52,499 nucleotides of DNA from positions 1 to 52,499 of the forward strand of contig JANMQQ010000036.1 in assembly GCA_031370545.1 (NCBI GenBank), read 5' to 3'. Numbering within the stretch: position 1 is the stretch's first letter; every line of letters starts with the position of its first letter. The DNA comes from Gammaproteobacteria bacterium. GTDB taxonomy: Bacteria; Pseudomonadota; Gammaproteobacteria; SG8-11. Under the pieces are notes generated by a model. It saw nothing but the letters and a program-made list of their open reading frames with translations. It was not told the DNA's origin and made no database searches. A program made the position numbers and the translations under genes. Shown piece after piece: positions 171 to 45,495 of this stretch.

Positions 171-2315
171 CTATCGTGTAGCAGTGAACACGACTAAGGC
201 ACTCGGCTTTGCGCCAGTAGGAATATTGCCAGCTTCTTTTAGCATGCCGCTGGCTGAATCAATCGAGTAAATGGAAACGGTATTGGAACCTTCGTTCGTA
301 ACATACACAAAGCGTCCAGAGCCTTCCACCGAAATCGCCACAGGTGCTGCGCCTGACTTGACTTGCCCTACTCGTGTGAAGCGACTTTGTGCAGTATCGG
401 CATAGTAAACAGTAATGTCATTGGAACCCTTGTTGGCCACATACACATAATGCCCGCCGGGGTGCACCGCAACGGCGGTGGGGGATGTCCCTGCTGGAAA
501 TGGCGAACCAGGCACCGCTTTGACTTCACCATTAAAAATATTGATTGAATAAACACCTAATGCGTTAATGCTGCCATGCGCTAAGTAAAGAAATTTACCA
601 CGCGGATCGGCAGCAAGTGCAACGGGATTCTTTGCGACTTCAAAAAAGATCCGGTCTTGACTTATTTCATCAGCCATCGGCCCGGCGCTGTAATAGCGGT
701 AAACGAATACTCTGCTGTCGGTCGCATCCACAACATAGCTAAACCGAGATGCCGGGTGCAGCAAAACGCTGCGTGGCTCAACACCCGCTGGACGCGGAAA
801 GACAATTGCCGGCTGATCGACTTGCGTCAGCTCCCGCAACGTCCCAGTTGTACTATCCACGACAAAGATCGACATGGCATGTTCAGCGGTATTCGCGACG
901 TACGCATAGTGGTCGTTGTAATCGAGCGCGAGTGAACGCGGATCGTTACGCGTTTTAATTGGCGAGCTCGGAATTTCTTTAGGAATTCCCGTTGTAGGAT
1001 CAACCTGGTAAGCCGAAATCGTATTAGATCCGGCATTAGTTACGTACACATATCGGCCGGTTGTGTTAACGCTCACTGATGTAGGATTGATGCCGGTAGG
1101 CCGGGTCGCCACAGCTTTCAAACTACCATTCTCTGCATCAATGCGATATGCAGTCAGTGTGTTATCGTCGGCGTTGGTGACGTAAATCGACTGAGGCTGA
1201 AACTCTACCGGCTTATCGCCCGAAACTATCGCCATTGCACGGGGGCCTGGTCTTGACCAAGTGGTTTCGAGCGCGTTTAATGCGCCGGTTCCCGAATCAA
1301 CTGCATAGGTCGTGATGTCATGCGAATCGTAGTTGGGGCTGAAGGCAAATTGCCCGGAAGGTTCCATTACTAATGTGGCTGGAAGTTTGCCTATGGCCGC
1401 GAAGGGCGATCCGACAATAGCCGTCAACCCTCCGTCGGCGATGTTTACGTTGAACCCCATGACGCCGCCAAAAAAATCGGTTGCGTAAAGGTGTCTTCCC
1501 TTCGAGTCGAGACGGATACCGAAGGGAAACACTTTGGAGCCAAGAGCGAACTCATTCTGACGCTGCAAAACTCCCGTTACAGAATCAATGGCGTAGGTGA
1601 GGATGCTTTTGGTATTCCAACTCGTCAAAAATGCGAATTTGCCACTGGGGTGAATATCAATAAATTGGGGCGCATCGCCTGCCGCATAGGGGGAGCCGGG
1701 CAGATTGGTTAGTGTGCCTGTGAGCGGGTCGATGCGATAACCCGATACATTGTCATCCATAATATTCGTCATATAGACAAATTGTCCCGAAGGCGCGACA
1801 GCCACCGAGCGCGGCATCTTGCCACCGGGGAAGGGCGCACCTTTAACCGGAGTGAGCTCGCCAGTCTGGGCGTTAATCGCCATTGCGCCAATGTTTAGGG
1901 AGTTGCGACCCGCCAGATACAAGTACTTTCCTGCTGGGTCCGTGGCCATCCAAAACGGTGAGCTAATCTTAGGATTGTAAGGTGACCCCGGCAGTGGGGT
2001 TAAACGCCCAGTCATTGAATCAACCGCAAATCCAGACACTCTCATCGACGTTTGCTGCGAAACGTAAACGAATTTTCCAGACGGGTGCGTCACGACGGAT
2101 GAGGGGAATTTCCCAACAGGGACATGCCCGTTGTGGCGCAGTTGACCAGATCTGTTATCAACGATAAAACCAGAGAGGGTGTTGTCGTACGAATTCACGA
2201 CGTAAGCGAAGCGCGGCACTTCCGATCCGGCCGGTAAGGCGGCTGTGCTGGCAATAACGACCACCGCAATTCGCATCAACCTTAACATGCCGTCACGACC
2301 ACGCCGCTCAATCAT
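171..2315 (-). CDS. Secreted tandem 7-bladed beta-propeller protein (lactonase / YVTN-repeat family)
   Basis: 714-aa ORF with a signal-like segment MLRLMRIAVVVIASTAALPAG. It has about 14 repeats of the type GRYVYVTNAGSNTISAYQVD / GRFVYVTNEGSNTVSIYSID / GKFVYVSQQTSMRVSGFAVD, typical of lactonase-type propellers, which implies two propellers. It begins 15 nt after the cytochrome stop, so it is the last gene of the operon. Confidence 0.8.
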   Translation of the reverse strand: MIERRGRDGMLRLMRIAVVVIASTAALPAGSEVPRFAYVVNSYDNTLSGFIVDNRSGQLRHNGHVPVGKFPSSVVTHPSGKFVYVSQQTSMRVSGFAVDSMTGRLTPLPGSPYNPKISSPFWMATDPAGKYLYLAGRNSLNIGAMAINAQTGELTPVKGAPFPGGKMPRSVAVAPSGQFVYMTNIMDDNVSGYRIDPLTGTLTNLPGSPYAAGDAPQFIDIHPSGKFAFLTSWNTKSILTYAIDSVTGVLQRQNEFALGSKVFPFGIRLDSKGRHLYATDFFGGVMGFNVNIADGGLTAIVGSPFAAIGKLPATLVMEPSGQFAFSPNYDSHDITTYAVDSGTGALNALETTWSRPGPRAMAIVSGDKPVEFQPQSIYVTNADDNTLTAYRIDAENGSLKAVATRPTGINPTSVSVNTTGRYVYVTNAGSNTISAYQVDPTTGIPKEIPSSPIKTRNDPRSLALDYNDHYAYVANTAEHAMSIFVVDSTTGTLRELTQVDQPAIVFPRPAGVEPRSVLLHPASRFSYVVDATDSRVFVYRYYSAGPMADEISQDRIFFEVAKNPVALAADPRGKFLYLAHGSINALGVYSINIFNGEVKAVPGSPFPAGTSPTAVAVHPGGHYVYVANKGSNDITVYYADTAQSRFTRVGQVKSGAAPVAISVEGSGRFVYVTNEGSNTVSIYSIDSASGMLKEAGNIPTGAKPSALVVFTATR

Positions 2316-2330
2316 GAAGCTTAGACTTGG

Positions 2331-5138
2331 CTATGGGACCTGTATGCAAGCTTCACTACTCATGGCCATCCAAAACATACCGTCTTCACCATTCCCGGGC
2401 GGACCAGCGGAACCACAGTTTGTATCTTGCCACTGCCCGCTAGCACCAAAACTCCGCACTTTTAATGCAGCTCGGTTGTAGTAGGGCCCAGCAAGAAAGC
2501 CATTTGTTGTCTGTATCCGAACCTGCCCGCGCTCCGCAGTTGCGGTGTTCTCAGCGCCGACGTCATTCAGATTTACTAGAAATACTTTATTCTTCCAGCC
2601 ATGAGGTACGGCGACGTGACATAAATTACACCGAAAGGTATCAACCGCATTGGCGTGAAAAAGGTGCAAATTAACACCCATTGCACCCATGGCCATGCCA
2701 CCACCCATAGCTCCTCCGCCCATTCCCATGCACATCATCCCACCACCACCTCCACCACCCATTCCACCACCACCCATTCCACCATTCGCCATGCCACCAA
2801 CACCGCCACCCATCATGCACATTCCCGCTCCACCCAATGCAAATCCGCTGTTTTGTGCAGCGGTTTGAGCTGTATCTGCATACTGACCATAGTCGTGACA
2901 CTTGAAACAAATGTGTGTTCGCACATCCGGATTACAGGGCGCCCTATTAGCTTGGCCGCACGCATCCTCGCCAGTGCCACCAATCAAATCACCAGACCAC
3001 TTACCCTTGAGGAGAAAATTATTGGACGAACCATGCGGCCCCCAAACATTGCCATTCTCCCCACCATCCGGAACAACCGTACCTGCCTGAGTATTAGATC
3101 CGTGACAGTCGGTACAGTACATTGTTTGCACGCCCACAAACCTAAATGGGACATTCCAGTTGCGAGCATCCGCATGGCGAGCGGTTGGATCACGGCCAGT
3201 GTCGCTACGCACTGGATGCCAACTGCGATGATTGTTGGATTGAAAATTTACTAAGCTGGTCGCTGGCCCTGTATTGGCAGGAGCAGGTCCGGACCCGCTA
3301 TCTTGGGTTGTTACAGGTTCACCGCGATGGTTTGCTGGCGAGTTGTACTCATTAGCTTGGTTGGTGTACTGGGTCATTTGATTTGTGCCTGGGGCTGTAC
3401 CGCCCCTAAAAGAACCCAACATCGGTGGTGTTGCCCCGTAGGCGTAATTCGAATGACACTTTAGGCAGACCTGATACTCGCGAGTTACGTAAGGTTGGCC
3501 TACATCAGTAGGACTATTTACAGTCGGATCGCCACGCTTGATAGTGAAGGTAATGTTGCCCTCTGGCAAAGCGTTAAAGTTGCTTGATCCATATGTGGGC
3601 TCGACGCCCCACATGCCTTTCAATACCCCGGACGCGAGATTATTGTGCTGAGTGCCCCCGGTCATGTCGTGTGTATGCGTGGGCCCTGCATCCGGAGTAT
3701 TAGGATTCGCGTTGAAGATTCGATTCCTGATCACTCGGTGCGGGTTGTGACAGTCGGTACACTCCACATGGCGGTTGTTAAGATTGCCGTATCCCAGATT
3801 AACTCGTGCCTCAATGAAATCTTTGCCCGCCTGTGTAACTGCGGTCTCAGTTCCGATGTTGTGCACCTCTGGCGTAGCGCTATTTAGATTGAAGCCATTT
3901 GCCTGATCAGTTGAGGTAATCGGCATGTGCGTGTTGCCGGGGGTCGTAAAGTCGGTTTTGATATCGGGTACTGGCGTATTTAATCCTTGAGCGTTGAGCG
4001 TGCCACCATCAGATGAATGGCAGGCAAAACACGTTTGTTCAATAGCTGGATTTCCACCCTGCTTGATCAAGTAGCCGCTAGCACTAATTTTAGTCGGACC
4101 ATCGGTGCCCTCACGCAACAGGCGTCGAGAGCCTTGCACGGTGTGAATGTCATGACATGCCAAACAGGCAGTTTCCCATACCTGCTTCCCCTGCGGAAAA
4201 TCACGTACTGCCGCTGCTGCCGTTGTATATGTCCCAGTTGCAACTTGGCTATTGGCATGAGCGGAGCCGACCCATCCCTGCTTATCGTGGCAGGCGAGAC
4301 AAATAATATCTCGTGCCGGATCAAAAGCCGTGGCGGTCGGCGCACTAAGCTGAAAACGCGACGCACGCAGGAATTTGATATTTTCATTATTGAGTACGTT
4401 ATTGTCACGAATGTGCGGGTCATGACAGGTATTACACTGCACCATGCCTTCTGTTGCTCCAGGTGTTTTAGGCTCTAAGGGCAGCAGCGGCTTAACTCCC
4501 CTTTTGCGCACCCCGACGTACTGCGAGGTGGCAGGATCCCTCATATCGCCATCTTTTAATGCCAACGCTGAGTTAAACGTGAGAGAAATGGGATGGTCAT
4601 TTCGTAGATTCGTGCCGATGAAGCGAGTAAAGCCGGTATCCGTTCCTTCGCCAGGTGCCATTACACCATTTGGACCCGTGCCCTGCATTGCGATATCCGC
4701 AGTCAGTGGGTTTTGGTCCGTGAATGCACCCGTGAGTACATTCACCGCACCAATCGCCATGGTCCCGTCGTGACACGACAGGCATAACTTTGAAATACCG
4801 CTGGGCTGATCTAACGGCACATCAGGGCCAGAAGTCGCGTCAATCGATCCCGAACGATAGGTGTCGTAAACAGCGCTTGATAGCTTGCGATTCCACAATG
4901 GGGCTTGGGCCGTCTCAGCTGCATGAGGGGTATGGCAGAACACACAGATTTGTTTTTCAGTCGTTGCCGAAACTACGCGACTAGCACCCCCGGCCAAGTT
5001 GGGGGTGATGGCTGAGGAAAAATTATGCTTGGTGTTACGAATGTCGGCGATGCGCGCAGCATAGGTCTGGCTTAAAGAGAGCAAGCTCAATGCCGCAAAA
5101 AGCGCAATTACAATGATTTTAAACCGTTTGGTCCCCAT
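2331..5138 (-). CDS. Secreted undecahaem c-type cytochrome (paired-CXXCH type) with internal Gly/Met-rich tract
   Basis: 935-aa ORF with signal peptide MGTKRFKIIVIALFAALSLLSLSQTYA. It has 11 CxxCH motifs (CVFCH, CLSCH, CNTCH, CLACH x2, CFACH, CTDCH x2, CLKCH, CFKCH, CNLCH). Several are in the CxxCHxPH form seen in Geobacter-type multihaem cytochromes. Confidence 0.9.
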   Translation of the reverse strand: MGTKRFKIIVIALFAALSLLSLSQTYAARIADIRNTKHNFSSAITPNLAGGASRVVSATTEKQICVFCHTPHAAETAQAPLWNRKLSSAVYDTYRSGSIDATSGPDVPLDQPSGISKLCLSCHDGTMAIGAVNVLTGAFTDQNPLTADIAMQGTGPNGVMAPGEGTDTGFTRFIGTNLRNDHPISLTFNSALALKDGDMRDPATSQYVGVRKRGVKPLLPLEPKTPGATEGMVQCNTCHDPHIRDNNVLNNENIKFLRASRFQLSAPTATAFDPARDIICLACHDKQGWVGSAHANSQVATGTYTTAAAAVRDFPQGKQVWETACLACHDIHTVQGSRRLLREGTDGPTKISASGYLIKQGGNPAIEQTCFACHSSDGGTLNAQGLNTPVPDIKTDFTTPGNTHMPITSTDQANGFNLNSATPEVHNIGTETAVTQAGKDFIEARVNLGYGNLNNRHVECTDCHNPHRVIRNRIFNANPNTPDAGPTHTHDMTGGTQHNNLASGVLKGMWGVEPTYGSSNFNALPEGNITFTIKRGDPTVNSPTDVGQPYVTREYQVCLKCHSNYAYGATPPMLGSFRGGTAPGTNQMTQYTNQANEYNSPANHRGEPVTTQDSGSGPAPANTGPATSLVNFQSNNHRSWHPVRSDTGRDPTARHADARNWNVPFRFVGVQTMYCTDCHGSNTQAGTVVPDGGENGNVWGPHGSSNNFLLKGKWSGDLIGGTGEDACGQANRAPCNPDVRTHICFKCHDYGQYADTAQTAAQNSGFALGGAGMCMMGGGVGGMANGGMGGGGMGGGGGGGMMCMGMGGGAMGGGMAMGAMGVNLHLFHANAVDTFRCNLCHVAVPHGWKNKVFLVNLNDVGAENTATAERGQVRIQTTNGFLAGPYYNRAALKVRSFGASGQWQDTNCGSAGPPGNGEDGMFWMAMSSEACIQVP
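2676..2834 (-). repeat. Low-complexity coding tract: 53 codons of Gly/Met (30 G, 14 M, 5 A, 2 C, 1 V, 1 N) inside the undecahaem cytochrome
   Basis: It translates as GGAGMCMMGGGVGGMANGGMGGGGMGGGGGGGMMCMGMGGGAMGGGMAMGAMG, between haem motifs 10 (CFKCH) and 11 (CNLCH). On the plus strand it appears as runs of ccacc/cat. Confidence 0.9.
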
Positions 5139-5250
5139 AGAATCCTCGTCGCGCAGCGGATTGAGTTACGAGCTGGCACGTTCGCAAGTTGCTGCCTGTA
5201 TCAGGGGTGACAACCACTTCCGCATGTAAGTATGCCGTAGGTCAAGCCGC

Positions 5251-6297
5251 TCACTTCGATAAACCACCAATATATTCGAGAATCACTACGCGGCTATTGA
5301 ACATATCGGCAACATAGACGCGACCCCTAGCGTCAGACCAAACACCCGATGGCAAATAGAACTCCCCGATTTCAGATCCCGTACCACCGATAGGCAATAG
5401 TAACTGACCATCTGGCGAATATACTAACAAATGATCGTAATACGATTCTATAACGTAGACGCGACCCGCCCGATCAACAGAAATCCCTTTAGGCCGCGGC
5501 AGGTCACCAACATTCAACCCGCGTCGACCAAACTTAAGCACGTACTTACCTTCGGGAGTGAGCACCTGTATCCGCGAGTTGAGAGTATCCGTCACATACA
5601 ATTTGTTGTTAGCGAAGGCCAGGAAAGTTGGAAAGTTGAATTCCCCGATCCCTTCGCCCCGTTGACCGATGACCTCGCGTAACTTGCCTTCATCATCGAA
5701 GACTTTGATGTTGTGTGCGTGGGTATCAGAGACGTAAATTCGGCCTGTTTTTGGGTCACGCGCAATCCCGGTAGGTCGCTTGAGTATGCCATCGCCAAAA
5801 GATCCTAGTGGCTCACCATTGGGTCCAAGCCGAATAACCTCGGCTAAATCGGCATCCGCGACCAGCAGTTGGCCGTTCGCACCTGCTACGATTCCTGACG
5901 GAGTAGCAAATTTACGCGATTGCCCGGCGTCGTCCCAAAACAATAGCTGACCCTTCGGTTCATCAAATACAAATATGCCTCGACGCCCAACATCGGTGAT
6001 GTATACCCGTCCGCGTGCATCGTCGACCACTCCCGACTGAGGTCGCTGCAACATCAACCGATCCGGTTCCGAACTGGCCAGCCCAACCAACCAGCGCAAG
6101 ATTTTTTCAAACCTGCCGCCTTCTTCCTTGAAAATATTGTCTTCCCCGGTGAACTGGCCCACGTAGCGGTACCGCGCCATTTCGGGCTGTTGCGGCCAAA
6201 CTCTGCTTTCACCCGTCGCTTCATAGCGCAAAAATGATTTGGTCTCACCGCAGGCGACAAGTGTTGTCAATAAAAAAATAATTGCTAGAACGCGCAT
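5251..6297 (-). CDS. NHL-repeat six-bladed beta-propeller lipoprotein
   Basis: 348-aa ORF with lipobox MRVLAIIFLLTTLVAC|G. It has six NHL-like blades: GRVYITDVGRRGIFVFD, GQLLVADADLAEVIRLG, GRIYVSDTHAHNIKVFD, NKLYVTDTLNSRIQVLT, GRVYVIESYYDHLLVYS, GRVYVADMFNSRVVILE. Confidence 0.85.
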   Translation of the reverse strand: MRVLAIIFLLTTLVACGETKSFLRYEATGESRVWPQQPEMARYRYVGQFTGEDNIFKEEGGRFEKILRWLVGLASSEPDRLMLQRPQSGVVDDARGRVYITDVGRRGIFVFDEPKGQLLFWDDAGQSRKFATPSGIVAGANGQLLVADADLAEVIRLGPNGEPLGSFGDGILKRPTGIARDPKTGRIYVSDTHAHNIKVFDDEGKLREVIGQRGEGIGEFNFPTFLAFANNKLYVTDTLNSRIQVLTPEGKYVLKFGRRGLNVGDLPRPKGISVDRAGRVYVIESYYDHLLVYSPDGQLLLPIGGTGSEIGEFYLPSGVWSDARGRVYVADMFNSRVVILEYIGGLSK

Positions 6298-6315
6298 GTA
6301 TTCTGGGTGGTTGCC

Positions 6316-7422
6316 TTACTGCACGATGATCGGGAGAGCGTCGTTGTTGTCAGTTACAACACGAAACGCTTGAACACGGCGATTCATGCTGTCCGCAACA
6401 TACAATATGTTTTGATCTGATAGCCACATGCCGGTGATCTGTCTGAACCGACCGGGGGCGTAACCAGTGCCGCCGATGGTCGCAACGAGCCGGATGTCGT
6501 CAAATATCTTGATAGTATTGTCGGAGCGATCACTCACGAAAATGCGATTGCGCTTATCAACTATGATGGCCGTAGGCCAAATAATTTGTCCGCGCGCGAT
6601 TGAAAATCGAAACGCCCCAGTATTGATATCAATTTCCTGGAGCGGCAACTCCAGTCGATCAGCAACAAAAAGGGTATCTTTACCCTTTGCGATAGCAGTA
6701 ATTGCGCGAAATTTACCAGGACCTTGGCCCCGTGAACCGATTGCAGACATGGCTTGGCCAGTTTTGCTGAAGATCACAATATGGCTATAGCTACCATCGG
6801 CGACATATATCTGTCCGCGCACCTCATCCACGACAACATCAACGGGCCGCGCCAAATTAGCCGCATCGGCAAAACGGCGAACGAAATTTCCATTGGCATC
6901 AAAATAAAGCACTTGTTTACCGACCGGATCAGCGACGTAAAAACTAAGATCCGATTCGACTGCCATGCCTGCAGGGTCGCCGACGAATTGGCTACCCGCC
7001 AGCGCCAAACTTTGAATCGCTTTTGTGGTGAGGTTATAGCGATAAATCGCGCGCGTGCCCGCATCAACGATCAACATCTGGTCTTTTACACCGCCTACTG
7101 CAACTGGAGTTAAAAATGTTACGGTGTTCCCCGCGCCCACTATGATGCGCGCGAATTCGCCCACTGCACCGCTCGCCATCTCTTGTCGACCACCGGTAAT
7201 GGGCTCCATCGCAACCAAAACTTCGGGATCCCCCGGACGTGTGTAACTGGTGAGCGGACTGACTGGCCGAGTGGTCGGCGCGGCTTTTTCCGGTGCCGTT
7301 ACCGATGATTTCAATTCAGCAACGCTGCAACTTGCAAGCATGATAATGCCCAGCACCGGTGTAAGTGCTCGCCAAGTCGGAGCGTGATTATCTCGGAGGG
7401 GTGCGATGATCGGGCAGCGCAT
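6316..7422 (-). CDS. NHL-repeat six-bladed beta-propeller lipoprotein (paralogous module)
   Basis: 368-aa ORF with probable lipobox ...VLGIIMLASC|S. Six blades are visible: DQMLIVDAGTRAIYRYN, LSFYVADPVGKQVLYFD, GQIYVADGSYSHIVIFS, DTLFVADRLELPLQEID, NRIFVSDRSDNTIKIFD, NILYVADSMNRRVQAFR. The exact start is uncertain. Confidence 0.8.
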   Translation of the reverse strand: MRCPIIAPLRDNHAPTWRALTPVLGIIMLASCSVAELKSSVTAPEKAAPTTRPVSPLTSYTRPGDPEVLVAMEPITGGRQEMASGAVGEFARIIVGAGNTVTFLTPVAVGGVKDQMLIVDAGTRAIYRYNLTTKAIQSLALAGSQFVGDPAGMAVESDLSFYVADPVGKQVLYFDANGNFVRRFADAANLARPVDVVVDEVRGQIYVADGSYSHIVIFSKTGQAMSAIGSRGQGPGKFRAITAIAKGKDTLFVADRLELPLQEIDINTGAFRFSIARGQIIWPTAIIVDKRNRIFVSDRSDNTIKIFDDIRLVATIGGTGYAPGRFRQITGMWLSDQNILYVADSMNRRVQAFRVVTDNNDALPIIVQ

Positions 7423-7474
7423 AGAGCAACCTGTACCGCAGTGTCGTCCGGAAAAATGCGTGAAAAGTTTTATC

Positions 7475-8035
7475 TTACCGCAACCCTACATTGTCGCGAG
7501 GAACGCTGTGGCAGCGATTGCATTCCAGCGGCGGGAACGCCACTTTGCCATGGCAAACCCCGCAAAACTCGCCTTCAATAATGGCCGCCATAGTTACAAA
7601 ATTTCCACCGCGTTGAGGCAGGAAAATTTCTGGATGGCAGTTTTTACACGTTAACCATTTTGTATGAGGTAAATGGGGAAACCGCACATACGGCATCGAT
7701 GCGGTGTTTTTGAAAATCACATCGAAATCGACCGAGTGCATCTTCTCTGTCCCTGACAGCCCGGTTCGCGGATTAACCATGCCTTTGTCGAGCGTGTCTA
7801 CCCAATTAATGACGCCACGCTGATCGCGCGGGAAGTTCGCCATAGCTTCGGAAGGGGGTTGTAAAATCCTAACCGCGTCATTGGTCGCATCGTGAATTCC
7901 ATCCTCGGCAATTGGAACAACATGTCCGTTCAATTGAAAATGTCCGGCACCTTCATCGGCCACCGCAGGCACGGCCAGCATACCCAACACTAATGCAACA
8001 CGCACACCACTCGGCACTGAACCACGCATAGTCAT
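7475..8035 (-). CDS. Periplasmic c7-type trihaem cytochrome (paralogue C)
   Basis: 186-aa ORF with signal MTMRGSVPSGVRVALVLGMLAVPAVA. It has three CxxCH motifs (CKNCH, CGVCH, CNRCH) in the c7 pattern VRFPHLPH..C..CH...M...G.FCGVCHGKVAF...C..CH. Confidence 0.85.
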   Translation of the reverse strand: MTMRGSVPSGVRVALVLGMLAVPAVADEGAGHFQLNGHVVPIAEDGIHDATNDAVRILQPPSEAMANFPRDQRGVINWVDTLDKGMVNPRTGLSGTEKMHSVDFDVIFKNTASMPYVRFPHLPHTKWLTCKNCHPEIFLPQRGGNFVTMAAIIEGEFCGVCHGKVAFPPLECNRCHSVPRDNVGLR

Positions 8036-8052
8036 GTTCCGATCCCTATTGG

Positions 8053-9660
8053 CTACTGACTGACTCCGGCCAACCGCAAAGCACGCTGAATTTCCTCTGT
8101 TGCCGCTAACATCAGACTAATCGCTTCGGGATAGTTTCCAGCCTTGGCTTTTCCATCCGCTTCAGTTTTGCGCGCCCGTCCCTTCACTACATAAGTATCC
8201 ATTAATTTCACCACCGCCTCAGCAGGTTTCTTTTCTTCAAGTGCAACCGGAATCAACTCCTCATAACTTATGAACCGTTTACGTTCATATTCGTATTCAT
8301 CCGCAGGTGACTCGAAATTTAAATCATAGACGATGGTTTGGGCATTAAGCATCGCCTGGATCGCCTGCGTAACCAAGCGCTCGGCTTTAACAAGCAATTG
8401 TGTTGCCTTTTCGTGCTGCCCCTTATCACTCAGCGCATGGGCATCGCTGGCCAAGCCATCGACTTTGACGTGATCATAATCTACTGCCGCTGCAGCGCCA
8501 CGCTTCTTCACTGTGCGCTCAAAACTCCGTTTGTGCGAGTCCTGGAAATTCTTCAGGGTGTCTAACGCTTCGACGTAACGTCCACGTTGAAGCTTGGCCG
8601 CTTCTTCATTCGAAGTCGAACGCGTTGCGGCGGTGACAAGCTTTAACGCCTCTTCGGCGAGGGCCAGCGCTTGACTATTATGCCCATTGCCCAATTCTTG
8701 ACGTGCGGCTTGCACCTTACTAGTCGCACTGGAAAGAGCACTTTTTGCAGATTCGTTATCCCCTTCGGCTACCGCTTTGGTGGATTTTGACTGCAACATT
8801 AATTCAGCCAGCATGAGTTTCTGCTTGGCCGTATCACTAACATTGACTCTGGGGCCACTGGAAATTCCGGCGGCAACCTCCGGCGTATCTGCGATGCTTG
8901 TGGCCAATAACCGATTAATTTCAGCGCTCGATGCTGTCTTGTTCACTACCGCAACTTTGCCACCCATCGAGCTGTGATTACGGCATTGGTAATAAACAAT
9001 GTCAGGCGTGCTTTCCGTTGGCGACACTACGATAAGACCGCGGTAGGTAAACTGACCCTTTATTCCTTCGGTCACCGTTCCGCCACCCCATCCCATCGGA
9101 CTGGTCGAAAAATAGACGTCATGGAGCGGATTGGTTTGTACATCAAATTCGTAAACTTCCCCGCGCTTCAAAACCACAGACTTGCCTGGAACATTGTCGA
9201 GCAGGAAACCCAAATGATGCCCTTTGCCAAAATTGGGGTGCGCAGGTGTTTTCTCAGCCACAGTAATCACAAAATGATTCGGCCCCTTTTTAGGGATCGG
9301 AGTAGGCGTTGGAAAGAGCGTTGCGGTCGGAACCGGAGCGACTAAGGGCGACGCAACAGGAACCTTAGTTATTAAGGGTGGGGGGGCAACCACCGCCGCA
9401 GGCTTCATCTCGACCGCAGGCGGGTTGGGATCGACGACCACCGGTTCGGGCGCCTTTTGTGCAACCGATTTCTCCGCCACACCGGTTTTATCGACGGATG
9501 TTGATCCAGGGGCTTCCTGCTTCTGCTGTGTGACTGGGGGAGATTCAGGAGTTACTTGCGCAGCGGCAGCTTCCTTCTTGGTCGTCGCTGGGGTACCGCA
9601 GCCCGCGATGAATCCCACAACTATCGCTGCCAATAATAAAGTATTGCTGGCTCGACGCAT
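8053..9660 (-). CDS. Lipoprotein with cupredoxin (type-1 blue copper) domain and long helical C-terminal domain
   Basis: Lipobox MRRASNTLLLAAIVVGFIAGC|G. I prefer the start at 9660 (AAGGTG 8 nt upstream) over the ORF-track start at 9681. A roughly 110-aa Pro/Ala/Val linker follows, then a cupredoxin-like core with His in NPLHDVYF (9121-9123) and YYQCRNHSSMGGKVAVVN (Cys-x2-His-x2-Met, 8965-8985). The last roughly 290 aa are Ala/Lys/Glu-rich and helical. Confidence 0.75.
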   Translation of the reverse strand: MRRASNTLLLAAIVVGFIAGCGTPATTKKEAAAAQVTPESPPVTQQKQEAPGSTSVDKTGVAEKSVAQKAPEPVVVDPNPPAVEMKPAAVVAPPPLITKVPVASPLVAPVPTATLFPTPTPIPKKGPNHFVITVAEKTPAHPNFGKGHHLGFLLDNVPGKSVVLKRGEVYEFDVQTNPLHDVYFSTSPMGWGGGTVTEGIKGQFTYRGLIVVSPTESTPDIVYYQCRNHSSMGGKVAVVNKTASSAEINRLLATSIADTPEVAAGISSGPRVNVSDTAKQKLMLAELMLQSKSTKAVAEGDNESAKSALSSATSKVQAARQELGNGHNSQALALAEEALKLVTAATRSTSNEEAAKLQRGRYVEALDTLKNFQDSHKRSFERTVKKRGAAAAVDYDHVKVDGLASDAHALSDKGQHEKATQLLVKAERLVTQAIQAMLNAQTIVYDLNFESPADEYEYERKRFISYEELIPVALEEKKPAEAVVKLMDTYVVKGRARKTEADGKAKAGNYPEAISLMLAATEEIQRALRLAGVSQ

Positions 9661-9801
9661 TGATTCACACCTTCGACGCATGATTGATATGAAATTTATA
9701 ATCGAGCAATTCCTCCCCTGCGATGAGCAAATTCACAATCGTATGCTCATAACGCAGACGGGTGCGCGAACGCACCCGTACTGACTCCTAATCTTAGGAA
9801 A

Positions 9802-10479
9802 TTAGCGCCACGGATTTTTTACGCTCGCGGAACTGAGCGGCGGCTTCCAGTCATCCGGCTTTGGTTTGGAATGGCATTTTTTGCAGGACAGCGTGGTGAT
9901 TGGAAATGATACCTTGCCGTGGCATACGCCGCATTTTTGTCCGAGCAATATCGCCGACATATTGATCTGGTTTGCGCCCTTCTGCGGAATAAAAATCTTC
10001 GGATGGCAATTGGAACAATGCAACCATTGCGTATGCGGCTTATGCGGAAAAACGACGTCGGGCATGGACGCCTTGACTTCCCGAACGATATCTAAATCCA
10101 TCACGAGCGCTTCGACACTGGGATCAACACGATCATAGCGAGGATTCAGAAAGCCTTTTTGCAGCGCCTGCACCCAGTCGACATAGTTGCCGAACTCTGT
10201 TGTGGGCAACCCCTCGTAAGAAACCAACGGGGGCTGCAACACATGACTACCTTCGTTATCCGGATCATGGATACCGTCTTCCGGAGGCGGAGCGTTCCTT
10301 TGCTTGGGCTTCTTCAACAAACGATTAAACACATTCGCGGTACTAACTTTATTTGCGTCCGAATCAACTTCCTTTAACTCCATAGATTTCTTGGTCGCTT
10401 GCGTTTCAGCTGCCACTGCACCTGCGGCAGGCACCGTTGCAGCTATCAGTATCACTATCGTTTTAACAATGCTGTTCAT
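9802..10479 (-). CDS. Periplasmic c7-type trihaem cytochrome (paralogue B)
   Basis: 225-aa ORF with signal MNSIVKTIVILIAATVPAAGAVA. It has CSNCH, CGVCH and CKKCH in the same c7 pattern (VVFPHKPH..). It shares the N-terminal EDGIHD...LQPP...W[VD]..L.KG..NPR module with the 7475-8035 product. Confidence 0.85.
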   Translation of the reverse strand: MNSIVKTIVILIAATVPAAGAVAAETQATKKSMELKEVDSDANKVSTANVFNRLLKKPKQRNAPPPEDGIHDPDNEGSHVLQPPLVSYEGLPTTEFGNYVDWVQALQKGFLNPRYDRVDPSVEALVMDLDIVREVKASMPDVVFPHKPHTQWLHCSNCHPKIFIPQKGANQINMSAILLGQKCGVCHGKVSFPITTLSCKKCHSKPKPDDWKPPLSSASVKNPWR

Positions 10480-10518
10480 GACATTTTCCTTCCCCGAATT
10501 CTATTTTCTGCCGAACCA

Positions 10519-10995
10519 CTATTTAGCGGGCTTCGCGTCGCTCTTATCCGCAGGTTTATCCTGCGCATCAGCAGGCTTGCTGTCTTGTAACGACTTATAC
10601 GCAGGGGCCACCAAACGTTGCACGGTGCTGCCGTGAATTTGCGTCGGCGTGCCGGGGATACCGGAATGGCACATCCCGCAGTTTTCTACGGACCAGGAAA
10701 TCTCACCGTTATGGCAAGCACCACAGAATTGCCCGTCGATAATTTTGGCCATGGTGATTTTGTTACCACCCGCCTTGAACTGAAAGCCCAGATCAGCGTG
10801 GCACACTTTGCAGCGAAACCGAATGCGATGATACCAATGCGGAAACACCACTGGCCGCATGCCGGCAGCATCGGCATAATTATTAATGACAACATCCGCG
10901 TACTCGGCTTGCGCCGAGACAGGCACAAACAATCCAGCGACGCCCGCAAACACCGCCAGCGCCAACCACCACTCCTTAGTCTTTTTGATATTCAT
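10519..10995 (-). CDS. Periplasmic c7-type trihaem cytochrome (paralogue A, short form)
   Basis: I moved the start to ATG 10995 (MNIKKTKEWWLALAVFAGVAGLFVPVSAQA, with GGAGAGAG upstream). It has CKVCH, CGACH and CGMCH with VVFPHWYH. The C-terminal tail is Lys/Asp/Ala/Pro-rich. Confidence 0.85.
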   Translation of the reverse strand: MNIKKTKEWWLALAVFAGVAGLFVPVSAQAEYADVVINNYADAAGMRPVVFPHWYHRIRFRCKVCHADLGFQFKAGGNKITMAKIIDGQFCGACHNGEISWSVENCGMCHSGIPGTPTQIHGSTVQRLVAPAYKSLQDSKPADAQDKPADKSDAKPAK

Positions 10996-11058
10996 AGCCA
11001 CTCTCTCTCCCCGAAAAAACACTCTTAGTATGTGAAAGCGCACCGATAGTACAACAGC

Positions 11059-12963
11059 TCAAAAACTTCGTACAGCCTGGAAAGTCATCGAATATGCGCG
11101 TTGCCCAGGGCCAGCGTCGGTTACGCGTGCAGCTAAATTTAATGCTAGCAGACCAATCCGATACGAGAGCGAGTTATCCCAGTCCTTTGAGGCTGTGGAC
11201 TGAGTACGCTCGTCTTTCAATAATGTGGGTACCGATAATCGGGAATTAAATAACAAGCCGTGTACACCTAAAAAACGGCTATGAACATAGCCAAAATTAG
11301 CGGAAGCTGCCTTGCTGGTTTTACCGATATCGTTGATCGGAGAATTATTCGTGTTGTCAGTAGCTTCCCTATCCGGTGTACTGGCACGGCTTGCCTGGAA
11401 ACTCACACTACCTGATAGACTGCTCAACCTTGACAATTCTTGATTTCGCGCCAGTTGCGCACTCAAGACTTGAGACGCACTGGTTTGTCGCCCAAAGCTT
11501 CGCGAGTCAGATAACGATGTGCCAGCGCTAGTGCTCCCACCGAATCCGGAGTGATTCCACCCCAACGACATCGAACTTGAAAACGAACGACCTATATAGT
11601 CGGAATCACTGGACTTGGAACCTGACGCATTCTGCCCAAACGAAACGTTCATTCCAGCGTTGCGCCCCAAACTTATTGAACGTCCCAGTTGATGTGACGC
11701 ACTGACGCTAACGGAGCGCTGACTCTTTGTTTCCGTCACTGAAGCTCCGCTGCCTTCCACTGGGGTAGTTTCGCTACGACTCACACTGTTACTTACGCCA
11801 ACCCCGACATTCCAACCGTAGTCAAAACCGAAAATTCGATACTGGTCGGACGGAAGACTCGTTGAGAGTGACTGCGTGGAACTGACAGATTGACTACCTC
11901 CCGCATCAGCCACGCTCACACCCACGCCGCCGTTAACAATAAAGTTGTGCGCGAATTGGTAGGATGCGCTCGCATTTGTTGAAACACCTCGCGACGCCGC
12001 CCCGGACAACACCGTATAAATAAGGGCACCGCCACTAATATTGTAAGGTCGGTGTTCAGGTCGCCAGTAGAATGAACTTGATACTTGTTCATAAGCTGTG
12101 CGGAATGTTTCGGTACCCCCCCCGGTAGACGCTGCCCCGGAATAACTGGCGATGGAATTTACTCCCACTTCCCCCGAAGGGAAATAACTGTGGCTCAGCA
12201 AAAGGTTGGAGCTAGTACTTGTAATATCGGACTGCGCGGGATCGTTTTCGAAATACCCGCCCCCTAATCCAAAATCGTGGTACGGCACCCGTTTTCGAAT
12301 TTGAAACCCAAGTGATCGGTCGACTGAATTACCAGTTTGATAGCTCGCTGAACCCGTGTTGTGATCAAACCAAGCGTTTATATTGGTGCCATCTAATGTG
12401 TTGTAAGTTTGGCGGATATAAAATCGACGTGTCTGAGAGCTTTGTCCGTTTAACAACGCGCTGTTGCTGTCCTGCCGACTATCCGACTGCGCAAATCCAA
12501 AGTTAGTGGGAAACCGGCTCTCTGGAAACAAAGTAAGATCCACGCTGCCGCTCAGAGATTTTGAAGTAGCCTCAGAACTAACACTGCTGCCTGATCGACC
12601 TAGGCCCAGTCCAACACCCGCACCCATAGTTAAAAACCAAGGCTGCCAGAAGTATCCGCCACCGTTCAGACTTAGAGTTACATTTGACTGCTCTGATTCT
12701 GAATCAGCAATGCGCGAGTAACCGTAGCCATAACTCAAACTGCCGCCAAGGCCGGTGGGAATAAAATATTCCGCATGAACTTCGCTAGGCGAAGCGTATG
12801 AAAATAGCGCGACAACACCCGCAGTCACTAACGACCGAGCACGGGAAACATCCGTAGAGTAACGGCGCAATTGATGTGACAACAGCACTGAACCCCCGAC
12901 CCCTAGACCTACGTTACACGGACGACTGCGCGCTCGCGGGGAACCGAAGCGGCGCACCAGCAT
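11059..12963 (-). CDS. Large outer-membrane beta-barrel protein (putative porin component of the redox operon)
   Basis: 634-aa ORF that is very Ser/Gly/Tyr/Asn-rich with alternating patterns. It has no CxxCH and no long hydrophobic helix after the signal-like ...LVTAGVVALFSYASPSEVHA. The C-terminus YSMTFQAVRSF ends in Phe, like an OMP beta-signal. The true start may be the GTG at 12888. Confidence 0.6.
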   Translation of the reverse strand: MLVRRFGSPRARSRPCNVGLGVGGSVLLSHQLRRYSTDVSRARSLVTAGVVALFSYASPSEVHAEYFIPTGLGGSLSYGYGYSRIADSESEQSNVTLSLNGGGYFWQPWFLTMGAGVGLGLGRSGSSVSSEATSKSLSGSVDLTLFPESRFPTNFGFAQSDSRQDSNSALLNGQSSQTRRFYIRQTYNTLDGTNINAWFDHNTGSASYQTGNSVDRSLGFQIRKRVPYHDFGLGGGYFENDPAQSDITSTSSNLLLSHSYFPSGEVGVNSIASYSGAASTGGGTETFRTAYEQVSSSFYWRPEHRPYNISGGALIYTVLSGAASRGVSTNASASYQFAHNFIVNGGVGVSVADAGGSQSVSSTQSLSTSLPSDQYRIFGFDYGWNVGVGVSNSVSRSETTPVEGSGASVTETKSQRSVSVSASHQLGRSISLGRNAGMNVSFGQNASGSKSSDSDYIGRSFSSSMSLGWNHSGFGGSTSAGTSLSDSRSFGRQTSASQVLSAQLARNQELSRLSSLSGSVSFQASRASTPDREATDNTNNSPINDIGKTSKAASANFGYVHSRFLGVHGLLFNSRLSVPTLLKDERTQSTASKDWDNSLSYRIGLLALNLAARVTDAGPGQRAYSMTFQAVRSF

Positions 12964-13042
12964 ATCGACTACGTCGCGACTGACTCATGGAATAAAACAT
13001 GATGTACTTGGCCCTCCCGCCACCCCGTCCCCGAACCAACAT

Positions 13043-13072
13043 ATTATGAATAACGACTTTTCTTGAGTGTAA
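13043..13072 (-). promoter_or_regulatory. Candidate sigma70 promoter for the redox operon
   Basis: On the minus strand the sequence reads TTACAC-N18-CATAAT, in the 144-nt gap between the lnt stop and the barrel ORF. This is pattern match only. Confidence 0.25.
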
Positions 13073-13107
13073 GCCACCGTCGTTCGCGGTGTAAACCGTT
13101 GGCGCGC

Positions 13108-23777: not shown

Positions 23778-24104
23778 GCGAGTGCTCTCCATAGTGATCA
23801 ACCGAATCGAGTGCTGCGTTATTCCGCTGCACAGCCTACTTGTCTTCTCTCAACGCCGACGATTACGGCCTCATCTTCCTCGTTCCGCTCCGTTGGATCA
23901 AGCCGAGGCGGCACGGGTCAAAACGCGCGCTTGCTGTCGAGCAAAAAATTGCGGCTATATTTTACTGGGGGCGTTGCACTTTGAACTTACGCCAAACAAC
24001 AAACAAAACGTGGCCTGAGAGGGGTCGTTGCAGGACCGCGCTACAGCATGGAACACGGACATGACAATTTTTGATTTATTGATCAGATCGACTCCCGTCG
24101 CATT

Positions 24105-24353
24105 ATGGGCATGATCTTCATCAGCTATCGCCGCGCGGATGCCGGTGGCCATGCGGGCCGCCTGTTCGACCGCCTGCGCCACTGGTTCGATGCCGAGGTG
24201 ATTTTCTACGATTTGGACGGCATCGACATCGGCGAGGTTTTTCCCGAGCGCATCGAGTACGCCGTTAACCATGCAGCGGTGGTGCTGGTGCTGATCGGGC
24301 CGGACTGGCTGGAAAAAATTTACTGCCTCTTAACAAAACTCAGCCGAATTTGA
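24105..24353 (+). pseudogene. TIR-domain gene fragment, truncated by insertion of an IS1595-type element
   Basis: MGMIFISYRRADAGGHAGRLFDRLRHWFDAEVIFYDLDGIDIGEVFPERIEYAVNHAAVVLVLIGPDWLE matches the N-terminal two thirds of bacterial TIR domains. The reading frame leaves TIR-like sequence at about 24320, where the element's inverted repeat begins. Confidence 0.6.
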
Positions 24354-24749
24354 CGGGTAAATGGGTTGCACAGACGCCGAGCAGTCGTGCTGGGAGTTCG
24401 GGTTCGCAGTGTCGGCGGTTGAATCGGTAACAGAATTCATCCAGAACCACTTCACCAGGGGCAGCTTGGTCGAATGGAACAACGTGCCGGAAATCACCGA
24501 ATGTTGCTTGTGACAGCCACTGCACTGATACAACCCCCGGCTGGGCAAACGATGCGCGTGCGCGTGGCCGCAGGCCGGGCAGTGGAAGCCCTGCGGCCAG
24601 CGTTCTTTGAACAAATACGCTTGGCACGCGTCTTCTTCTCCAAAGCGCCGTTGCCAAAAAACTCATCGCTTCCTTTTTCATCGCACCACCCCTAACTGGT
24701 TGTTCGTGCAGCACAACATAAAACTTTTGCTGAGTTTTGTTAAGAGGCA
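24324..24749 (-). mobile_element. Internally deleted, frameshifted IS1595-family element (MITE-like, about 426 bp)
   Basis: Perfect 21-bp terminal inverted repeats: TGCCTCTTAACAAAACTCAGC at 24324-24344 and its reverse complement at 24729-24749. Inside, the transposase N-terminus with Zn-ribbon (FKERWPQGFHCPACGH...LYQCSGCHKQHSVISGTLFHSTKLPLVKWFW) is joined directly to a C-terminal piece (DEFCYRFNRR...) in another frame. The DDE core is missing. Confidence 0.7.
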
Positions 24750-25013
24750 ATTTTTTTTAATGCGGTCAACCAAGTGTAAATCGGATTCCGACCCCAATAT
24801 GGATGCAGCCTTAGATGCCATTTGACTTCATATAGATGTAAACCGAACCTAGATATGCAACTACGCAAGCCTGACCTGACCTCATGCCCCCCTGACTCTC
24901 GTCATGACCAGCGCCATTAAGATCGATTATGACATCGTGGCCGTTCTTCGCATCGGCGACCTGTCCGCTAGCAAGAAAAGCCGTCTCGCATAAACCGCTT
25001 ACCAACAGATGAT

Positions 25014-27078
25014 CTATTTCAGTGTGTGTCGTGTGCCGGGCCCCCCCGTACCGGGATTGAAATCCTTTGCCAAATCCGGCGTATCTGCGTTGGCAGTACC
25101 TTTGAACGCCCCATCGTCCACATGGACAGTGATTGCTTGAGTGTCAAATAAGCCTTGTTTGTCGGATACTTGAACTGTCAAGCTGTAGGTTTTGTCTTCA
25201 TCAGGATGCTTGATGAACGACAGCTGGCCAGTGGTTTTGTCGATGCTGAAAATAGCATGACCCGCCATGTCAAGGCCGGTTCCGGCGACGATGGAGTAGC
25301 TTCGTGCATCGCCTTTGTCGGGATCTGTTGCCTGTATCGTAGTCACGCCACGCCGACCATGCTCAAACGCATCTTCGCCGATCACGTAGTCAGCGCGATC
25401 ACCGCCCCCACCAGACGTAATTACAGGCGGTTCGTTGACATCGGTTACTTTGACCTTGATCAATTGGGTATCTTGGCCGAAGTCACCGTCGGAAACGCCG
25501 ACCAAAACTTCGTAGATTCCGTCGTGATTGGCATCATTGGGATGTTCGAAATCCGGGGAGGTGATGAAAGCCAGTACCCCCGACTCGATCTTGAATAAGC
25601 TCCCATCCACTCCGCCGACGATCGAATAGGTAAGTGCTTGATTAATGTTCTGGTCCGTGGCGATGACCGTGGTCACACCAGTCGTGTTCTCTGCGACAGC
25701 TACATCCGCCGTAACCCCGCCGCCGTTCGATTTGATGACAGGGTCAAAGTTGTAGAGCGGGTTGAAGGCTCGAAAAACATCTCTCTGATTATTGGTGTCG
25801 TTTGGGACGAGATTGGTAGAGTCGCCCTGGAATGCGATGTACTTGCCGTCAGCCGAGATGACAGGATGAATGCCGAACTGATCGCCTTGAACACCCTGGG
25901 CGTTGACCGATACCATGACGATGGCGCCGGTCAGCATGTCTTTTACGAACACATCGTTATTATCTTTGGTGTCGCCTGCAACGAGGTTGCTGGCGCTACT
26001 GTCGAACGCAACATAGCGTCCGTCGGCAGAAATGACCGCATTGCCGCTAAAATCGTTTCCTGGTGTGCCATCAGCCGCAGCGGATACTAGTTTGGTGTCA
26101 CCGGTGATGCGGTTCTTCCATATGATGTCCCCGGGACCAAAAGGATGGTCCGATGACACGGGCACGATGTCGGTGGCTTCGGTGTAAAACACCGCGTATT
26201 TAGCATCCGGTGTCATCGTCATACTCAAGGAAAGACCATTGGCCGATCCAGGACCGCTTGACGACTTCGAAATGAGTTCAATCCTACCCGTCAATAAATC
26301 TTTGATAAAGGCATCCGTGGCGCCGTTGTTGTCGCCAGATACCAGATTGTCGGCATCGCTCTCGAAATACACGAAGCGGCCGTCGTCGGAGATGACTCCC
26401 CCATCGCTGTTGCCATTCCCGAAGACGGTATGGCCCCCATCGACCGTTCCCGAGACAAGCACGATTTCGCCGGTAGTCATGTTTTTGACGAATACGTCCT
26501 TGTTCCCATCGATGCCGGGGTCTGTATCGCCAGCCACAAAATTGTCAGCAAAGCTGTCGAATGCCACGAATTTTCCATCGGGCGTTGCCATGCCGTTAAA
26601 ACTGTTAAAATCATCCTTGGATGACATGGCCGGCGGAGTCGGTAGCCGCCGAGACCAGCGTTCTGGTATTTGTTGCGAGGTTGACCAGAATGACATCCCA
26701 TTTATTGTTGTTATCGGCGCCAAGTCCCAGCAGATTGTTTGCCGAACTGTAGAACACGGCATACTGGCCGTTGCTGGTGAGTGATCCCGCCAAACTGGCC
26801 TTATTGCCGGTATGGCCATCGATTCCGGAAATGAGTTGAAGGTCGCCCGTAAGCATGTCCTTGAGAAACACGTCCTGCGTAAGATTGAGGTCGTTGCCCG
26901 GGGGCACGAAATTGTCCGCAAGCGTGAAGAACAAAACGTAGCGACCGTCCGCGGACATCAGCGAGTGAGCGAAATTTAGTGTTCGGCTGAAACCATTGCC
27001 TTGTGTACCGTTCGCGGCGACAGAAACGAGGTTGATCGAATACGAATCGATTGCATTGGACATGATTTCACCCTTCAT
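25014..27078 (-). pseudogene. Frameshifted gene for a PD40-like beta-propeller repeat + two cadherin-like domain protein
   Basis: The ORFs 26611..27078 and 25014..26921 overlap in different frames. The repeat unit (..DG[RK][YF]V[AV]F.S.A.NLV..D.N...DVF[VI]KD[ML]LTG...LVS) continues across the junction if one base is restored near 26620-26632. The C-terminal half has ...VKVTDVNEPPVI... cadherin-type modules. Confidence 0.7.
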
Positions 27079-27288
27079 TAATACACTTCAGTGAATGGCC
27101 GCGTCGGACTTGCCCTTTGGATCGAACTTTATTGAGAAATCGATTGCCATCTAGACACGCGATTTCGATTCGCACAAATGACATCGAACCGGAATTTCTA
27201 CGAGCCTTGCCAAGTGTAGAGCTAAACAAAATTCCGGCCAACTATTAAAGAGTCTTCCACTGCAAGATGAGCCTGAACAGGGGCCGCA

Positions 27289-45459: not shown

Positions 45460-45467
45460 GAGACATT

Positions 45468-45495
45468 CCTAGTTACTTAAATATATGTAACTAGG
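45468..45495. promoter_or_regulatory. Candidate AbiEi operator: 9-bp perfect inverted repeat
   Basis: CCTAGTTAC-ttaaatatat-GTAACTAGG lies 9 nt upstream of the abiEi start codon, next to an AGGA RBS. Confidence 0.4.

Follow-up and report, generated by a model that had tools for sequence, protein, structure and literature searches.

A Uet (undecaheme electron transfer) gene cluster with a clade-specific double-propeller partner of UetJ on a gammaproteobacterial contig

The window analyzed here, the whole of a 52,499-nucleotide (nt) stretch from a Gammaproteobacteria bacterium (assembly GCA_031370545.1, contig JANMQQ010000036.1), carries near one end a block of nine genes for exported proteins. 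On sequence grounds, the block is a variant of the Uet ("undecaheme electron transfer") system, which has already been named and is experimentally uncharacterised, and is not a new system. Eight of the nine genes correspond one to one, and in unchanged order, to uetCDEFGHIJ, as established by domain types and positional orthologs, and the ninth encodes a secreted double β-propeller that is, from gene neighborhoods and phylogeny, a clade-specific partner of UetJ. The best overall explanation, to which we assign a probability of roughly 0.7, is that the Uet genes and this partner belong to a predicted trans-outer-membrane conduit that carries electrons inward.

The cluster uetABCDEFGHIJ-ccsAB-nrfG-batABD was named, with the meaning quoted above, in Candidatus Tenderia electrophaga and the Tenderiales (Eddie et al. 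2022, bioRxiv 10.1101/2022.05.06.490989). In the same study UetA was described as a tetrahaem cytochrome, UetB as a peptidyl-prolyl isomerase (PPIase), UetC as a predicted 28-strand barrel, UetD, UetE and UetG as c7 trihaem cytochromes, UetF as a cupredoxin, UetH and UetI as NHL proteins, and UetJ as an undecahaem cytochrome. Uet has further been recorded in Gallionella (PMC10734462) and Leptothrix (PMC13386937), and is still termed a predicted porin-cytochrome complex (PMC10734462, PMC13386937, PMC12575090).

An earlier note on this DNA had presented the block as a candidate new type of system, with a composition unlike that of known ones. That claim falls, given orthologs of eight of its genes, in order, in Ca. 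Tenderia and many other genomes; the note was right that an undecahaem, trihaem and NHL gene set, still lacking functional proof, is present in Ca. Tenderia electrophaga. Its proposal of an electron conduit remains plausible as a function class, which fits the literature prediction for Uet, and not as a novelty. The block is indeed not an Mtr, Pcc, Cyc2 or Rus system, but Uet already received its name and a cross-genome comparison in 2022, later papers have cited it, and we give next to no credence to an undescribed type of porin-cytochrome system.

Results

Composition of the nine-gene block

Translations and coordinates of the open reading frames (ORFs) were checked on the window, and its proteins were searched against Pfam and NCBIfam. 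The nine ORFs all lie on the minus strand between 12963 and 171, separated by gaps of 15-120 nt. They encode an outer-membrane β-barrel (uetC, 11059-12963), a secreted c7-type trihaem cytochrome (uetD, 10519-11043), a second secreted trihaem cytochrome (uetE, 9802-10479), a cupredoxin lipoprotein (uetF, 8053-9681, with a likely start at 9660), a third secreted trihaem cytochrome (uetG, 7475-8035), two NHL-repeat β-propeller lipoproteins (uetH, 6316-7422, and uetI, 5251-6297), a secreted undecahaem cytochrome of 935 amino acids (aa) (uetJ, 2331-5138) and a double seven-bladed lactonase-type propeller (171-2315).

This layout agrees with the earlier note, which had listed nine co-directional ORFs with these limits and gaps, and most of its further description held when recounted. 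The 20 CxxCH haem motifs that it placed in four proteins were recovered as 3+3+3+11. A Sec signal or a lipobox was found on every product, as it had claimed, with lipoboxes LASC, LVAC and IAGC in the 368-, 348- and 542-aa proteins and Sec-type signals in the other six; lipobox-like motifs turn up again in the relatives of these three proteins and seldom in the remaining families. The 634-aa protein described as rich in Ser and Gly and ending in ...AVRSF contains 19% Ser and 12% Gly. The four β-propeller modules are accounted for by NHL repeats in two lipoproteins and by a Lactonase match over the whole 714-aa protein, which makes two propellers. Profile searches, which the note had suggested as a check, gave matches to TIGR04257, PF14522, NHL and Lactonase; with the cupredoxin fold of UetF described below, all domain calls were verified.

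Gene order and distribution of the cluster

The distribution of the system was assessed by scanning one genome per species with a UetJ alignment, which matched at least 588 genomes. The best 80 of these loci were then compared for gene order by tblastn with the window proteins; individual compared loci carry numbers (L001, L016 and so on), L016 being from a Candidatus Tenderia sp. genome. The genes C, D, E, I and J occur in that order at 45 of the 80 loci, and the order in the window is that of L001 and L016. Conservation of the block, another check that had been proposed, is thus borne out across genomes, and since the same gene order recurs in dozens of them, the grouping in the window goes beyond chance. 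Upstream of the barrel gene, uetA and uetB are present at 41 loci, and resB follows uetJ at 63. Named hosts span Gamma-, Beta- and Alphaproteobacteria, Magnetococcales, Nitrospinota, Nitrospirae and Myxococcota, and include two cultured isolates. In the neighborhood of a UetJ relative in GCA_006218035.1, genes for a tetrahaem cytochrome, a PPIase, a 599-aa protein without Pfam match, two c7 cytochromes, a 455-aa protein without Pfam match, a c7 cytochrome, two NHL proteins and a 904-aa multihaem cytochrome are followed by genes for ResB, CcsA, a TPR protein and BatD, an arrangement that coincides exactly with the published Uet cluster and contains orthologs of all eight core proteins of the window in their order.

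Identities to the Ca. Tenderia sp. proteins of L016 are 25% for UetC, 74% for UetD, 75% for UetE, 37% for UetF (over 99% of its length), 59% for UetG, 38% for UetH, 52% for UetI and 47% for UetJ (over 98% of its length). Divergence inside the cluster is therefore uneven: UetD remains 74-84% identical from Gammaproteobacteria to Nitrospinota, whereas UetC falls to about 25%.

The nine-gene block has a GC content of 0.517, against 0.548 in the remaining window, and third-position GC is 0.47-0.60 in its genes, against 0.60-0.76 in housekeeping genes of the same contig. The lower GC hinted at in the earlier note is hence weakly right overall and clearer at third codon positions. Because lower third-position GC is combined with a scattered taxonomic distribution, horizontal acquisition of the block is suggested.

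UetC is modeled as a 28-strand barrel

The 634-aa UetC has no match in Pfam or NCBIfam, and is the positional ortholog, at 25-33% identity, of the barrel protein in the compared clusters. An AlphaFold2 (AF2) model built from an alignment of 56 relatives reached a mean predicted local distance difference test score (pLDDT) of 83.5. The model contains 28 long strands over residues 68-633, with short loops and no plug domain, and its C-terminal residue is F. Residues 1-42 are disordered in the model and a helix at 45-56 corresponds to the signal peptide; the true start probably lies downstream of the first ATG. The C-alpha diameter calculated from the barrel geometry is about 5 nm, and both a similar figure and the same number of strands were given in the earlier prediction (bioRxiv 10.1101/2022.05.06.490989). 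Modeling of the barrel alone, as had been proposed, thus yields a large 28-strand barrel.

A Foldseek search of the PDB with the UetC model returned only generic large barrels, namely TonB-dependent receptors, LptD, ushers and MtrB, at template modeling (TM) scores of at most 0.40. The highest TMq was that of LptD (up to 0.40), with MtrB (6r2q_B) at 0.33, and the search was set aside as a source of any functional lead beyond "large barrel".

In its general logic, a large barrel combined with multihaem cytochromes, the system resembles MtrCAB, MtoAB and PioAB (PDB 6R2Q), and the barrels are close in size, with 26 strands there and 28 in UetC. UetC shows no detectable sequence relation to MtrB, having no Pfam match, and the fold similarity is only generic. 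An MtrA-type decahaem cytochrome is not found in the window (27.5 bits against a cut-off of 192), and UetC itself contains no CxxCH, in contrast to Cyc2, in which haem is fused to the barrel. Both absences had been called correctly in the earlier note.

The N-terminus of UetJ is homologous to the nanowire subunit OmcE

UetJ consists of a signal peptide followed by a protein with 11 CxxCH motifs, all of them invariant in a 13-sequence alignment, and with paired-CxxCH and c3-type domain matches. It has more than 4400 relatives, and exactly 11 CxxCH were counted in 85 of 89 of them. A UetJ profile matched the OmcE filament subunit 7TFS (E 4.6e-26) and OmcE of Desulfuromonas soudanensis (9YUQ, E 1.3e-18). 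When only the window sequence was used, its residues 16-243 aligned at E 3e-20 to residues 10-209 of OmcE in 7TFS (PMC12954529), and the alignment retains the first three haem motifs together with the His of the NTKH, TPH, NDHP and DPH motifs. The fourth haem motif of this N-terminal unit is at C280, so that the OmcE-like part comprises the first ~285 residues, a four-haem unit encoded at about 4284-5054. UetA of a canonical cluster (L001:828-1652) aligns with OmcE from end to end, with all four haem motifs (7TFS E 8e-24, and also 9YUQ), so that UetA, OmcE and the UetJ N-terminus are all homologs of one another. No OmcE-like repeat was detected by hhalign in the remainder of UetJ, where similarity exists only at the level of haem motifs. 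In the Uet and OmcE literature searched, no link between the two was made.

This homology raises the possibility that the cluster mainly exports and anchors an OmcE-type extracellular cytochrome polymer, as a proteobacterial counterpart of the OmcE cluster of Geobacter and Desulfuromonas. In such a scheme UetC and the propeller lipoproteins would secrete or hold the polymer, and UetJ would either be what is exported or form one end (base or tip) of a filament built by UetA in canonical clusters. The part lists are alike: the OmcE clusters of Geobacter sulfurreducens and Desulfuromonas soudanensis are described as comprising two multihaem cytochromes, two β-propeller lipoproteins, OmcE and a large β-barrel, adjoining resB/ccsB (bioRxiv 10.1101/2025.10.22.684050), and neighbors of the resB/ccsB type are also found in canonical Uet. 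Folding and secretion functions have been proposed for the companion operon of OmcS, and polymers were raised as a possibility by the Uet authors themselves (Eddie et al. 2022). There are also differences. The OmcE system has a free tetrahaem subunit, whereas the window has none, its stand-alone OmcE-like subunit gene uetA being absent and its OmcE-like unit being fused in UetJ to seven more haems that lack a detectable OmcE-like repeat. Uet has in addition a cupredoxin and three c7 trihaem cytochromes. The barrel and propellers have been likened to those of Geobacter by part type only, and filaments have yet to be observed in organisms that carry Uet. We regard a polymer-exporting function as possible, with odds distinctly below even; it would refine the conduit explanation rather than exclude it.

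Several further features of UetJ were observed. A low-complexity Gly/Met-rich insert (2676-2834, residues 769-821) with 14 Met lies between haem motifs 10 and 11 and resembles Cu(I)-binding Met motifs. It sets the window's copy apart from the published Uet system, and a dense Gly/Met run (27-29 of 30 residues) occurs among 88 UetJ proteins only in the window, L084, L085 and L010, the window's immediate subclade. UetJ-only paralogs, with other uet genes missing from the surrounding 10 kb, were found at L030 and L035, and one Thiohalomonadales metagenome-assembled genome has three UetJ loci.

UetF carries a predicted type-1 copper site on a disordered tether

According to its structural model, UetF is a lipoprotein with a predicted type-1 copper site on a disordered tether. 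The 542-aa protein matches no curated family, including the Pfam cupredoxins. Downstream of the lipobox (IAGC), a tether rich in Pro and Ala (9301-9597) leads to a cupredoxin domain (8941-9279), which is followed by a helical domain of ~270 aa (8071-8844). The AF2 model has a pLDDT above 90 in both folded domains and below 50 over residues 22-117, corresponding to a disordered tether of about 100 residues, and the β-sandwich occupies residues 128-240. In numbering from the MRRASN start, H180, C226, H229 and M232 show no variation across 53 relatives and constitute the ligand set of a type-1 copper site with C-x2-H-x2-M spacing, the single such site that had been noted previously. The Gly that follows the lipobox Cys suggests, by the E. 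coli sorting rule, an outer-membrane anchor.

Foldseek placed rusticyanin and plastocyanins as the best structural matches. A search of PDB sequences with the UetF profile returned designed helical proteins and pseudoazurin at E 0.035, a marginal similarity to solved cupredoxins, and was unusable on its own; the cupredoxin call therefore rests on the fold and the invariant ligands. The fold is thus like that of rusticyanin from the Acidithiobacillus rus operon. The two systems differ in that UetF adds the conserved helical domain and has the C-x2-H-x2-M spacing, and in that the cluster is without Cyc2 or an aa3 oxidase. Laz, the lipid-anchored azurin of Neisseria, is likewise a lipoprotein with a Pro/Ala-rich linker.

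The helical domain of UetF (residues 273-530), also with a pLDDT above 90, contains the invariant patch QTIVYDLNFETPxDEYEYE. Its relatives are labelled as TPR or HEPN proteins in the sources, and no solved structure matching this domain was found.

Trihaem cytochromes and NHL lipoproteins

UetD, UetE and UetG each contain three CxxCH motifs and match the c7 family TIGR04257 at 64, 60.7 and 60.5 bits, respectively (cut-off 40); UetD also matches PF14522 at E 5e-15. UetD is 74-84% identical to its orthologs in L016, L001, L010 and L052, and the identity of the three proteins to those of Tenderia sp. is 59-75%. UetG is a paralog of UetE, to which it is 47% identical within the window. UetE combines a C-terminal c7 domain with an N-terminal domain of ~130 aa, and the former matches domains C and D of the dodecahaem cytochrome GSU1996 (PDB 3OV0) at E 1.5e-27. 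The c7 domains of UetD, UetE and UetG are accordingly homologous to those of the GSU1996/PpcA family of Geobacter, with the difference that the modules of GSU1996 are joined in one protein, whereas in Uet they are three separate proteins, two of them with an extra N-terminal domain of ~110-130 aa.

UetH matches PF01436 (NHL) and PF17170, has its lipobox LASC at residue 29, and is 38-54% identical to positional orthologs in L016 and L010. UetI matches PF01436 at E 1e-28, has its lipobox LVAC at residue 13, and is 52-56% identical to its orthologs. The lipoboxes on both NHL proteins of the window contrast with the cytoplasmic location predicted for UetH in the Uet paper (bioRxiv 10.1101/2022.05.06.490989).

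A secreted double propeller tracks UetJ

The ninth gene has no counterpart in the published uetA-J set. Its 714-aa product has a Sec signal and no lipobox, and matches PF10282 over its whole length at E 8e-81. The word "lactonase" is absent from the Uet paper, in which all four mentions of a "propeller" concern NHL proteins (bioRxiv 10.1101/2022.05.06.490989).

At L004, L007, L010, L019, L022, L084 and L085 the propeller gene directly follows uetJ, and at some loci the two form tandem J-propeller-J-propeller arrays. As a non-circular test of this association, metagenomes were scanned with the propeller alone as the seed, which yielded 41 full-length copies, 38 of them with enough upstream sequence to be judged. 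A UetJ gene lies directly upstream in 35 of these 38, and one of the exceptions is the second propeller within a J-propeller array. At L113 and L114, a J-propeller pair stands alone, the surrounding 10 kb containing no further uet gene. In a neighbor-joining tree of 89 UetJ proteins, computed with no bootstrap, all propeller-linked copies form one clade beside a Tenderia-like clade. Whereas the earlier note had counted the lactonase-type propeller among the integral members, it is an accessory confined to one clade and absent from most Uet clusters.

Gly, Pro, Arg and Tyr make up most of the positions that are invariant among 11 relatives of the double propeller, with no invariant His, Cys or Glu and no obvious catalytic set. 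Since there is neither a lipobox nor an invariant His or Cys, the protein is most likely a structural, non-catalytic, one-to-one partner of UetJ rather than an enzyme. The opposite proposal would be that the NHL and lactonase-type propellers are catalysts acting on a soluble substrate, with the cytochromes and the cupredoxin only removing electrons. Quinohaemoprotein dehydrogenases and hydrazine synthase provide a model for such an arrangement, and the 714-aa protein partially matches hydrazine synthase β, quinohaemoprotein amine dehydrogenase β and gluconolactonases. All of these enzyme matches are, however, far below the family cut-offs, and the lack of a catalytic set, the absence of the double propeller from most Uet clusters and the nature of the NHL proteins, which are lipoproteins accompanying a 28-strand barrel, make a catalytic role of the propellers very improbable.

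Flanking genes and the remainder of the window

In canonical Uet, uetA and uetB precede uetC and ccsBA-nrfG-bat lies downstream of uetJ. In the window, the position before uetC is taken by lnt, and none of the downstream genes is present before the contig end. Searches with tblastn for uetA, uetB, resB, ccsA and the TPR genes gave no match anywhere in the window, except for that of UetA to the N-terminus of UetJ. The lnt-uetC junction is genuine, because the independent relative L084, whose UetJ is 80% identical, likewise has the order corC-lnt-uetC...J-propeller. The contig ends 170 nt past the ninth gene, inside a fragment on the minus strand (1-103, translation MGKNYKQLSIEERTMIQTQLSMGMKPAAIAQ) which we take to be the N-terminus of an IS30-like transposase and which lies outside the system, 67 nt from the stop of the propeller gene. 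The canonical ccsBA genes may be displaced at this locus, or may lie beyond the assembly break; at L086, a metagenome relative with a 68% identical propeller, the order is J-propeller-ResB-CcsA-TPR.

At two other loci, a HemN-like radical-SAM gene (CxxxCxxC) was observed after the double propeller, at the usual place of ccsBA (L010:15021-16430 and L085:10730-11059), and at L010 three FGE/sulfatase-modifying-like genes lie next to it.

The lnt-uetC intergenic region (12964-13107, minus strand) contains one sigma-70-like match at 13095-13066, TTTACA-18-TACACT (9/12), which is a candidate promoter only and a weak one, as the number of matches is no higher than in shuffled sequence. Promoter and terminator scans in general performed no better than on shuffled sequence. 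Directly upstream of the block are miaB-phoH-ybeY-corC-lnt, and further away metH, typA, thyA, folA and lgt, all of them housekeeping genes. A scan of 30 larger ORFs in the rest of the window revealed no inner-membrane quinol oxidoreductase, in line with the earlier note, and no tRNA or Rfam features were found in the window.

The only other CxxCH in the window (24330-24614) was considered as a cytochrome and rejected, being part of a zinc-ribbon fragment, presumably of an IS1595-type transposase. The surrounding region (23800-27100) appears degraded, with many short overlapping ORFs besides this transposase fragment, and a cadherin/PD40-repeat surface protein in it is apparently split into ORFs of 635 and 155 aa. 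A defence island on the minus strand (44294-49301), which encodes an AbiEii toxin (44294-44854) and an ABC-3C system (DUF3732, MC3 and CTD7; 45589-49301), lies in the stretch of lowest GC in the window (0.48).

Discussion

In the conduit that we propose, UetC, aided by UetH and UetI, would hold or pass UetJ, forming a haem chain from the cell surface into the periplasm. UetD, UetE and UetG, with nine haems between them, would serve as electron carriers in the periplasm, whether as free proteins or docked within the mouth of the barrel, and the tethered cupredoxin UetF would pass them to inner-membrane complexes encoded elsewhere in the genome. Electrons would flow inward, with Fe(II), minerals or another solid donor such as a cathode as their source and a high-potential chain as their destination.

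Inward flow is most likely, because an invariant type-1 copper carrier fits high-potential chains and the named hosts are lithotrophic oxidisers. Oxidative chains of high potential, of which the rusticyanin chain is an example, typically contain type-1 copper proteins, and metal reducers are not known to use them. Hosts named in the UetJ scan include Tenderia, Gallionella, Sphaerotilus, Magnetococcales, Nitrospinota and Thiodiazotropha, which are mostly aerobic or microaerophilic lithotrophs. The same architecture could in principle serve outward flow, like that through Mtr, Pcc and OmcE, with partner cells, electrodes or extracellular oxides of Fe(III) or Mn(IV) being reduced. Metal reducers are indeed the source of OmcE, GSU1996 and PpcA, to which the cytochrome modules are most closely related among solved structures, and Mtr-type conduits are considered reversible (PMC10734462). 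We nevertheless consider outward flow unlikely, as the copper protein is invariant in the family and the named hosts oxidise Fe(II), sulfur or cathodes. In addition, the cluster has no linked quinol dehydrogenase (CymA, ImcH or CbcL type) at any of the compared loci, a weak point in that these comparisons sought only Uet, Ccs and Bat proteins.

The predicted participation of Uet in extracellular electron uptake has its sole experimental support in high expression on Tenderia biocathodes. In Ca. Tenderia electrophaga grown on a cathode, the trihaem genes were among the most highly expressed, and the undecahaem gene grouped by its expression with respiratory complexes (PMC5371394).

Several observations weigh against the proposed explanation. 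In the same Tenderia study, the undecahaem gene showed no differential expression with electrode potential (PMC5371394). No biochemistry or genetics on any Uet protein was found in the literature searched, in which the system is called "predicted" as late as 2025-2026. UetJ has ~85 residues per haem, and is thus far bulkier than MtrA. The contig lacks uetA, uetB and ccsBA although these are kept in most clusters, and the system could be incomplete here. Finally, the window contains no respiratory or carbon-fixation genes, and the metabolism of the host cannot be read from it.

A more far-reaching and, at present, speculative idea, which we hold to be rather doubtful, is that Uet is the lithotroph version of the OmcE nanowire machinery. 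The barrel and the two NHL lipoproteins would mount an OmcE-like haem chain for electron uptake, with UetJ, an OmcE unit extended by seven haems, as the base or tip for a UetA polymer in canonical clusters. The clade of the window would have dropped UetA, leaving UetJ and the double propeller as a self-contained, duplicable surface module; the tandem J-propeller arrays and stand-alone pairs underlie the last part of this proposal.

Electron uptake from solids by neutrophilic iron oxidisers and cathode autotrophs is still largely unexplained, and Uet, which is widespread with at least 588 species genomes, is one of few candidates for it. To the published description of Uet, the present analysis adds the homology of UetA and UetJ to a solved nanowire subunit, a confident model of the 28-strand barrel, an invariant blue-copper site on a tethered carrier, and a previously unnoted partner that tracks UetJ almost perfectly. 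Cultured Uet carriers, namely Sphaerotilus mobilis DSM 10617 and Hydrogenophaga sp. RWCD_12, make genetics feasible, and concrete experiments on the system can build on the homology to OmcE, the partner propeller and the evidence for the copper site.

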